The notes under the pieces were generated by a model. The model made no database searches. It saw only the letters and a program-made list of their open reading frames with translations, and was not told where the DNA came from. The position numbers and the translations under genes are program-made. Positions 30,562 through 33,367 of a stretch of 64,000 nt of DNA are shown piece by piece. The stretch is taken from positions 160,001 through 224,000 of the forward strand of contig CM000430.1 in NCBI GenBank assembly GCA_000165345.1, written 5' to 3'. The first letter of the stretch is position 1; every line of letters starts with the position of its first letter.

Positions 30562-31242
30562 CTAAACCATATTTTGAGCATTACTCATAATTGTCTTAAC
30601 TGCAATATTAGTAATCCAATCCTTTTGAATATTTCTGGACGAACGAATACACTTTGTATATCCAATTAAGTTTGAGAATGAAAGTGTAATAGCTATTACT
30701 GAAAGTGAAATCCACTGAAATTTCAGTGAAAGAAATTGAAATACTATAATAACAACCCAAAGTAAAGCCCATCCATATGTTGTAACCCAAAAGACTGATT
30801 TGTCAGTGCTTGATGAAACATTGGTATTTGTATTTTTAGATTCATTACAATTTTCAAACATCCAAACGGTCTCCCCGTCCTTAGTAATCTCATACCACCA
30901 TCTCATTCCAACCAAAATTCTTCCTGTCACATTCTTTACAGTCCAGAAATCCAAAGAAAGTAATATAGATGTAAGGAAAAATGTCAAAATAAAGCTATTA
31001 TTAGAAAAAAATCTGAAAAAAAATGGTCCAAAAATAAAAGATAAAAATGCTAGAACCTTAAATAGAACTTGGAAAAGACAAATCGTAGGATGAGTTGCGG
31101 AATTTAGTATGCTTGCCATAATTGGTGCTCCTGCTACATCTTCATTCATCATTGCATTCTTATGATTAACGTTATTTAGCTGATTCATGCCAGCTGGATT
31201 AGACAGGCTACTTTGCCCCACAAACTCCAACTCCATATTCAT
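30562..31242 (-). CDS. TVP23: Golgi apparatus membrane protein TVP23 (FAM18/DUF846)
   Basis: Four TM helices plus the diagnostic LDFWTVKNVTGRILVGMRWW motif. Confidence 0.75.
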   Translation of the reverse strand: MNMELEFVGQSSLSNPAGMNQLNNVNHKNAMMNEDVAGAPIMASILNSATHPTICLFQVLFKVLAFLSFIFGPFFFRFFSNNSFILTFFLTSILLSLDFWTVKNVTGRILVGMRWWYEITKDGETVWMFENCNESKNTNTNVSSSTDKSVFWVTTYGWALLWVVIIVFQFLSLKFQWISLSVIAITLSFSNLIGYTKCIRSSRNIQKDWITNIAVKTIMSNAQNMV

Positions 31243-31329
31243 ATGCCAGTCCTGTTATAAACATATATTTACTTTGCTTCCTTAATTATCACTTTTTATT
31301 CTTTCAGCTTTAAGTAATATGGACAGCCA

Positions 31330-31347
31330 TTCCCCGCCAAAAGTTCA
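31330..31347. promoter_or_regulatory. E2F-like TTCCCCGCCAAAAGTTCA in the divergent TVP23/PIG-P promoter
   Basis: Shares the 15-mer CCCGCCAAAAGTTCA with the site at 10326. Confidence 0.5.
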
Positions 31348-31496
31348 TGTATTATTTTCAAGCCAAATTTTCTTATAAACCTAAATCAAAAAAACTAAAA
31401 TAAGAGAATGTAATAGCATTTAATTTGATTGATTTCATATTAATTCCAAAAGGGGTATAATCAACTCATTTAAATTATAAGATCAGCTTTGAAAGT

Positions 31497-32338
31497 ATGA
31501 GTATAACAGTGCCTGCTGCCGATGTATCGAGTTTTGTAAGCTGGATATTAAGTTGGATTTCTATAGGTAAGTTCAATTTGTCTTGGTATTTAGTGGTTTT
31601 GGGCTAAAATCCAAATTATTGAGCTTTTCCTTACTTTTTAACTGCAATTTGTTGTCAAAGCTATTGAAATAAGTTTTCATGAGTAATTCAAGGGAAAAGC
31701 AAATTTAATAATAATGGATGTGAGATTCAGAAACGCTAACTCAAAAAACTAAATATTTCAATTCTATTAACTGCTGTTTTAATTTAGTTGTATATTTATG
31801 TTGGATGTTTATACCTGATGAGTACTTAAATCAAATCAATATAACATATTACCCAGATAGGATGTGGGGAATTACTGTTCCAATATATATGTTATTTTTG
31901 CCCTTCATGACAATAATAACATATAATTGTATATCAATTCTTAATGTCAGGCCAACCAATTCATTTGACCTGATTATAGATGAATCAACAAGATACATTG
32001 ATCTATCGTTTCTTTATAAATTCGAGGATTTAGAACAAATTAAGTCAATTTGCAAATCAACCTTGAAAATTTATACAATGGTAAATAAAAATCCTGGTGA
32101 AAAAATTACTGAAGGAGGTAGAAGTGACCACGAGAAAAAGTATGAACTCTATGACGATCCAAAAAGTGCTGTAATTAGACAAGCTTTTAAAAGTGAAGAT
32201 GTGACTTTAGATCTAGTCCATTTAAATAACGAAATAGATTCGATACATAACAATAAAAACATTATTCCAGTGGCAGACTTGCCACTTCCTTTAGTTTGTG
32301 AAATGATATACTCGGATAAGTTTGCAGGGAAACAGTAA
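31497..32338 (+). CDS. PIGP: GPI-GlcNAc transferase subunit PIG-P. Two exons (31497..31566 and 31788..32338) with a 221-nt phase-1 intron at 31567..31787
   Basis: Exon 2 (YLNQINITYYPDRMWGITVPIYMLF...PTNSFDLIID...IIPVADLPLPLVCEMIY) is co-linear with human PIG-P ([24 protein letters not shown]...PLDSIHTITD). The track ORF starts mid-TM1. Upstream exon MSITVPAADVSSFVSWILSWISI ends at a GTAAGT donor. The TTTAG acceptor restores ...IVVYLCWMFIPDEYL, matching PIG-P [14 protein letters not shown]. Confidence 0.7.
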
Positions 32339-32428: not shown

Positions 32429-33367
32429 TTAAGCAGTAACGAAAGTTAGTATGTTTCTGAATGAAACAGATACTGTATCAAACATTTTTGACATTCTGTA
32501 TGGACATGCATTTTCGTGGCATGGCTGAACATAATCGTTATTGACAAATCTTCGACTTACGAACCCGTTAGAATATCCCTTACCCCAAACAGGTGAGTTT
32601 AAGTTAAATGATAAAGGTGTAAATTCTTTTAGAATATTCTGTGGTCCACTACTTTCATAATGAATGACTCCCCATTCTCCTTTATTATAAATGTCCCTAA
32701 TTGTATACCAGCCATATAACAATCGATCTCCTTTAATACAGGATCCTTGGAACTTGGAGCAGGGTAGATAACCATCTTCTAAAACATTTAATAAAAATGC
32801 TGTATCAAAAAGTGGGAGAGGACTTTCTGTTGCCTCATGTTGAGGTATTAATGATTGAACTAACTTATAACCAATAATATCCATATTTCTTACGTGGTAA
32901 ATGGATGCAACTCTTAACTGGGTTCCTTGATCATATATATATGCAACACCATCCATTGACCTCAATAAGCATAGACCTGACAATTGTGGTCTCTCTGGTG
33001 TCTCGACTACCTTAAATTGAGATTTGAATGCTGGAATGATTGATAATATTCCTCCCCCAAAACCATTAAATGTATTACCAATTGAACATGCTGGAAGTCC
33101 TGCAATATCAACATCAGTCATTTCCTTGAAGAAATCTAACGATTTTCTTTCTAAATCTTCAATTTCACTCTGAGAAGCTCTCCAAATACGCCTATATACG
33201 TCGTAGTTGTTATCTGGAGGGAGATCGCCTCCTGTTGCCAATGGTACAATAATATCCGCCTGGAAATTTAATACATTCGTTATTTCACCTATTACGTGTT
33301 TAAATTTTATTAATACGTGTAAAATTAAAAAAAGTATTATACCTTCCCATCTATTAGTTTTTCTCAT
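32429..33367 (-). CDS. Hypothetical secreted protein with N-terminal signal peptide and no recognisable family
   Basis: ATG at 33367 followed by a hydrophobic h-region (WEGIILFLILHVLIKF). 312 aa ORF with several Cys; no conserved catalytic signature recognised. Confidence 0.4.
   Translation of the reverse strand: MRKTNRWEGIILFLILHVLIKFKHVIGEITNVLNFQADIIVPLATGGDLPPDNNYDVYRRIWRASQSEIEDLERKSLDFFKEMTDVDIAGLPACSIGNTFNGFGGGILSIIPAFKSQFKVVETPERPQLSGLCLLRSMDGVAYIYDQGTQLRVASIYHVRNMDIIGYKLVQSLIPQHEATESPLPLFDTAFLLNVLEDGYLPCSKFQGSCIKGDRLLYGWYTIRDIYNKGEWGVIHYESSGPQNILKEFTPLSFNLNSPVWGKGYSNGFVSRRFVNNDYVQPCHENACPYRMSKMFDTVSVSFRNILTFVTA

Follow-up and report, generated by a model that had tools for sequence, protein, structure and literature searches.

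The PIG-P gene of Cryptosporidium parvum, cgd2_840 on chromosome 2, is on the sequence evidence almost certainly a two-exon gene on the plus strand, from which a 221-nt phase-1 intron would be removed to yield a 206-residue product with two transmembrane (TM) helices. We regard this spliced model as correct because profile homology, a ten-species comparison, hydropathy and identity to curated models all point to it, and splicing at the C. parvum locus is strongly indicated. The model is already known, having stood in public annotations (GenBank, CryptoDB) for years, and the intron is of the ordinary spliceosomal kind, the gene being a housekeeping one. An earlier note, made from the DNA alone, had put forward the same two-exon interpretation, which is supported here by the gain in Pfam score, the two helices, the conserved junction and the identity to the deposited product.

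Gene structure and splice junction

Within the window, that is, the whole 64,000-nt stretch of DNA analysed (31.7% GC), coding exon 1 occupies 31497..31566 on the plus strand, and its 70 nt comprise the ATG, 22 further codons and the first base of codon 24, coding for MSITVPAADVSSFVSWILSWISI plus one G and thereby for the N-terminal two thirds of TM1. The phase-1 spliceosomal intron follows at 31567..31787 (+; 221 nt, 27.6% GC), beginning at the donor G|GTAAGT (GTAAGT at 31567-31572) and ending, as TGCTGTTTTAATTTAG, in a T-rich tract (31775-31785) ahead of a TTTAG acceptor at 31783-31787, the AG of which lies at 31786-31787 in the context ...TTTTAATTTAG. Two candidate branch points were identified by motif, CTAAC at 31736-31740 and TTAAC at 31767-31771, lying 48 and 17 nt, respectively, ahead of the 3′ splice site, and the sequence characters of a canonical U2-type intron are present, namely GT-AG termini, a consensus donor, a T-rich 3′ end and a branch-point-like motif. 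Compared with the C. parvum means of 99 nt and 22% GC, the intron is approximately twice as long and, at 28% GC, richer in G and C (PMC4637869 Table 1). Exon 2, at 31788..32338 (+), is 551 nt long including the TAA stop at 32336-32338, and codes for the end of TM1 (VVYLCWMFI), TM2 (residues ~49-77) and a C-terminal tail with the conserved IPVADLPLPLVCE motif. Across the junction the protein reads ...SWISI-V-VYLCWMFIPDEY, the codon of Val24 being split G|TT, and the spliced product amounts to 206 amino acids.

The coordinates and sequences that the earlier note had assigned to the ATG (31497), exon 1, the donor, the 221-nt intron and the acceptor proved right to the base, and the longest contiguous ORF does begin MFIPDEY as it had reported, at ATG 31805, with a length of 177 aa. 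This internal ATG (Met30, 31805..31807, +) is the start that is obtained from prokaryote-style or intron-blind gene calling. A further exon upstream of exon 1 was considered and rejected, as the frame is closed 12 codons before the ATG, no earlier ATG is present, and the same Met starts all orthologues.

Homology to PIG-P and predicted helices

In eukaryotes PIG-P, or Gpi19, is a subunit of the GPI-GlcNAc transferase together with PIG-A, -C, -H and -Q, and is needed for GlcNAc-PI synthesis. The latter four subunits have been reported in the C. parvum genome (PMC9713705), and cgd2_840 would presumably serve in the same enzyme. The spliced protein matches Pfam PF08510 (curated gathering threshold, 39.3 bits) with 103.9 bits and E = 6.4e-30 over profile positions 3-121 of 121, whereas the match of the unspliced 177-aa ORF, with 78.7 bits, covers positions 24-121, and exon 1 therefore makes up precisely the portion of the domain that the ORF leaves uncovered. 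When 1.84 billion representative proteins were searched exhaustively with an HMMER profile, 697 relatives were returned at E ≤ 0.001, and among the best 150 of these the match starts at profile position 12 or earlier, within the exon-1 residues, in 139. C. muris and other eukaryotes were reached by this exhaustive search, a word-indexed profile search having returned no relatives past the first eight, and no PIG-P chain came up in the PDB when it was searched by sequence, either with the single protein or with a profile of nine species, the hits being noise at E ≥ 0.19.

Alignment with proteins from a glaucophyte, two amoebozoans, a mollusc, a stramenopile and others established that F13, W29, P33, Y44, P46, P55, Y69 and D88 are invariant, while V14, S19 and W50 are nearly invariant across eukaryotic supergroups; F13, V14 and S19 are located in the conserved PIG-P segment (D/E)VYGFVxWIxS. 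The Cryptosporidium protein shares with the PIG-P/Gpi19 family the two-TM hairpin as well as the motif series (D/E)VYGFVxWIxS...YLxWAFxPDE...GITYYPxKYWA, and its match to PF08510 is full length. It differs from other eukaryotic PIG-P proteins, which are 115-170 aa long, by an insertion of ~70-80 residues that is absent from them. The insertion falls within C. parvum residues ~95-180, where it separates the two-helix core from the C-terminal IPVADLPLPLVCE motif (IPxxDxPxxxVN-like), and holds stretches that are invariant within the intestinal clade (LDLVHLNN).

Two helices had been expected on the spliced product, and Kyte-Doolittle analysis in 19-residue windows predicts them towards the N-terminus, where they would form a hairpin, with peaks at residues 13-32 (2.05) and 49-67 (1.78), the second helix extending over residues ~49-77; for the ORF alone, as for the read-through models discussed below, only the second helix was obtained. 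The description of exon 1 as the exon of TM1 holds in that the missing helix is restored by it, but TM1 (residues ~13-32) straddles the junction, residues 24-32 (VVYLCWMFI) being encoded by exon 2 and lying partly upstream of Met30.

Conservation across Cryptosporidium

Nine loci of the intestinal clade were compared, namely that of the window, those of C. felis, C. ryanae, C. xiaoi, C. sp. chipmunk genotype and C. meleagridis, and those of three SRA-derived assemblies; the addition of C. muris, of the gastric clade, completes the ten-species set. Exon 1 is 70 nt long, the junction is in phase 1 and GT[AG]AGT stands at the same base in all nine intestinal-clade loci, the C. felis donor being GTGAGT, and a compatible YAG acceptor is found just ahead of xxYLxWMF in every fetched locus of this clade. 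In C. muris the same junction is present, with an exon 1 of 64 nt, phase 1, a GTATGT donor and an intron of 64 nt (16% GC). Donor and acceptor are retained throughout the ten species.

C. ryanae and C. xiaoi possess a tandem NAGNAG acceptor (TTTTAG|GAG and TTCCAG|GAG, respectively), at which either AG preserves the frame; the deposited models of both species take the upstream AG, which keeps the Gly seen in most species.

Within the intestinal clade exon 1 shares 76-94% identity with the window and exon 2 67-95%, as compared to 49-86% for the intron and a similar 48-89% for the upstream spacer. Variable sites of exon 1 among the nine intestinal-clade loci are distributed 4/4/19 over the three codon positions (19 of 27 at third positions, binomial P = 9e-5). 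The recurrence of the exon, donor position and phase in eight loci besides that of the window, with this excess at third positions, goes far beyond chance. Exon 1 is under purifying selection while the intron drifts neutrally. A dN/dS of 0.109 is on record for cgd2_840 (PMC4637869 supplement). The residues VVYLCW precede Met30, and conservation at the protein level reaches back as far as the acceptor and no further. The interior of the intron is conserved only among close relatives, apart from a CTAAC/TTAAC-like block that lies 30-50 nt upstream of the acceptor. Intron length ranges from 172 to 300 nt across the intestinal clade and all three residues modulo 3 occur, therefore no conserved read-through frame is possible. 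Positions 31200-31900 gave no match when scanned against Rfam at E ≤ 1, hence no indication that the intron hosts a snoRNA or any other known RNA.

Neighbouring genes and the upstream spacer

The gene divergent to PIG-P, at 30562..31242 on the minus strand, encodes a DUF846/TVP23-type membrane protein of 226 aa (Pfam PF05832, 143 bits) and, judged from the gene order, corresponds to cgd2_830. All fetched Cryptosporidium loci are syntenic for this gene, with the order SUI1, DUF846, PIG-P, a 312-aa gene and a proteasome subunit, and in the window a spacer of 254 nt separates it from the PIG-P gene. The 312-aa ORF, which is convergent (32429-33367, -), has a hydrophobic N-terminus and is syntenic genus-wide (276-316 aa), no Pfam family being recorded for it in any orthologous locus.

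Alignment of the sequences upstream of the nine intestinal-clade loci revealed a sole retained block, TT(C/A)CCGC(C/A/T)AAA with the core CCGC..AA, and in the window this corresponds to an E2F-like element at 31330..31343 (minus-strand reading, TTTGGCGGGGAA), which is located ~155-165 nt ahead of the PIG-P ATG. The minus-strand sequence TTTGGCGGG(G)AA matches the E2F-like Motif 4 published for C. parvum, TTTGGCGGGAAV (PMC3734150). The C. parvum element (TTTGGCGGGGAA) contains one extra G as compared to the consensus TTTGGCGGGAA, which is retained in C. meleagridis, the chipmunk genotype and one SRA-derived species, and in C. muris a GGGCGGAA-like site is situated at a similar distance. No E2F-like motif was found in any of the PIG-P introns compared across Cryptosporidium, and its presence upstream together with its absence from the introns fits a transcription start 5′ of exon 1. 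The site is a candidate promoter element that the two divergent genes would share, with putative E2F-type binding. The earlier note had judged the position of such a promoter, 5′ of exon 1, to be fitting, and this stands, but its wording placed the element in the intron, and it is in the spacer that it resides.

Transcription would most likely start in this 254-nt spacer shared with the divergent DUF846 gene, after which the 221-nt GT-AG intron would be removed and exons 1 and 2 joined to produce an mRNA for a 206-aa protein with two transmembrane helices.

Alternative readings of the locus

The gene could be read instead as a single exon that starts at ATG 31805 and encodes a 177-aa PIG-P without TM1, the upstream ORF fragment being coincidental. 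That ORF is the longest contiguous one and passes the Pfam threshold by itself (78.7 bits), and the corresponding model is still deposited for the chipmunk genotype and is also found among prokaryote-style gene calls on Logan contigs. Such a protein would lose profile positions 1-23 along with the first helix, however, although this helix is present in distant PIG-P proteins, as illustrated by the 139 of the best 150 relatives that match into the exon-1 residues. Moreover, purifying selection acts on VVYLCW and on the whole of exon 1 across the ten species, and exon 1, donor and acceptor are intact even in the chipmunk-genotype locus, which makes a start at Met30 very unlikely. Still less credible is the read-through model of 2004, in which coding extends from exon 2 upstream into the last part of the intron (DSETLTQKTKYFNSINCCFNL-VVYLCW...) and which is represented by EAK88926.1 (204 aa, no Met) and by XP_667773.1. 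Models of this kind do exist in GenBank, and in the window the exon-2 frame is open for 66 nt upstream of the acceptor, yet the extension contains no ATG in eight of nine species, its open length varies between 9 and 87 nt and its peptide is unconserved. It adds neither a hydrophobic helix nor Pfam coverage, later annotations of the same species have replaced it, and the comparative data effectively refute it.

The window also contains two in-frame, stop-free AGs, at -57 and -63 relative to the acceptor, to which exon 1 might be spliced with the gain of ~19-21 residues between the two halves of TM1. Neither AG is conserved, a single compatible acceptor being available in most species (C. felis, the chipmunk genotype and two SRA-derived loci), and neither is preceded by a T-rich tract like that at 31775-31785; the added residues would furthermore disrupt both the helix and the family alignment. 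It is thus scarcely conceivable that one of these sites is the acceptor in place of that at 31786-31787, but minor use of them may occur alongside the main acceptor. The two-exon gene with the 221-nt intron is the reading that we retain.

Prior annotation

Residue for residue, the spliced 206-aa product equals the C. parvum PIG-P entries QOY43150.1, WKS76378.1, WRK30871.1 and KAL5369876.1, and it differs from the orthologues of C. hominis, C. tyzzeri and C. meleagridis, which identifies the DNA of the window as C. parvum. In CryptoDB, cgd2_840 is listed as PIG-P with 206 aa and 2 TMDs (PMC9713705 Table 5). The same two-exon model has been deposited for C. hominis (CUV04440.1 and others), C. 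tyzzeri, C. meleagridis, C. felis and C. ryanae, and likewise for C. muris (XP_002140811.1) and C. andersoni, whereas the superseded 2004 entries EAK88926.1/XP_626317.1 (204 aa) and the C. hominis TU502 entry XP_667773.1 carry translated intron in place of the exon-1 residues. The re-annotation of 2015 raised the proportion of intron-containing genes from 4.3% to 10.8%, models being altered only with RNA-seq or cDNA support (PMC4637869), and the IOWA-ATCC annotation of 2022 reports RNA-seq support for 100% of its introns (PMC8744675). The PIG-P intron is contained in both annotations, and both statements are general ones rather than records per gene.

Two deposited models depart from this structure. 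For C. sp. chipmunk genotype (GCA_004936735.2) the deposited 177-aa model begins only at the internal Met and leaves out exon 1, although an intact exon 1 is present at the locus, followed by a GTAAGT donor, an intron of 197 nt and a TTTAG acceptor. For C. xiaoi (GCA_037039495.1) the deposited 187-aa model splices out 45 nt in frame and so loses GVTFPVYFFFLLIIS, which represents most of TM2. This segment is conserved in C. ryanae, and a 202-aa C. xiaoi model fits the family; the 45-nt intron is probably spurious.

Age of the intron

The first PIG-P intron is also in phase 1 in the stramenopile Tribonema minus and the mollusc Biomphalaria pfeifferi, where it splits a Gly codon that is aligned with V24 of C. 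parvum, the junctions being SFILY-G-FYLLW and SFIGF-G-LYIVW, respectively, as compared to SWISI-V-VYLCW in C. parvum. The genes of these two organisms differ from that of Cryptosporidium in the possession of extra downstream introns, none of which is present in Cryptosporidium; exon 1 and the first intron measure 67 and 528 nt in T. minus, and 94 and 7568 nt in B. pfeifferi. On the comparison of these three lineages, the most economical reading is that the position is of LECA age, which is probable, and that Cryptosporidium would have kept it through heavy intron loss, the alternative being that it came to be shared by independent insertion at an AG|G-type proto-splice site.

The intron itself is longer in the intestinal clade (172-300 nt) than in C. 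muris (64 nt), and it is improbable that this expansion is non-neutral, whether through an internal promoter or alternative start for a TM1-less 177-aa isoform from the conserved Met30, or through an expression-enhancing element. Retention of the intron position since LECA is more likely than such a functional expansion. Being common to an alveolate, a stramenopile and a mollusc, the phase-1 position represents a small data point on intron antiquity.

Significance

As GenBank and CryptoDB already contain the gene model, its recovery has little discovery value. Reasoning from the sequence, by way of a missing helix and a donor and acceptor that restore the frame, nevertheless recovered the correct eukaryotic structure of a gene that was misannotated in the first genome annotations of both C. 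parvum and C. hominis and that is still wrong in at least two public Cryptosporidium assemblies. The GPI-anchor pathway, including PIG-P, makes the anchors of major Cryptosporidium surface antigens, and a truncated model of PIG-P without TM1 would mislead work on topology or localisation, or the design of knockouts.
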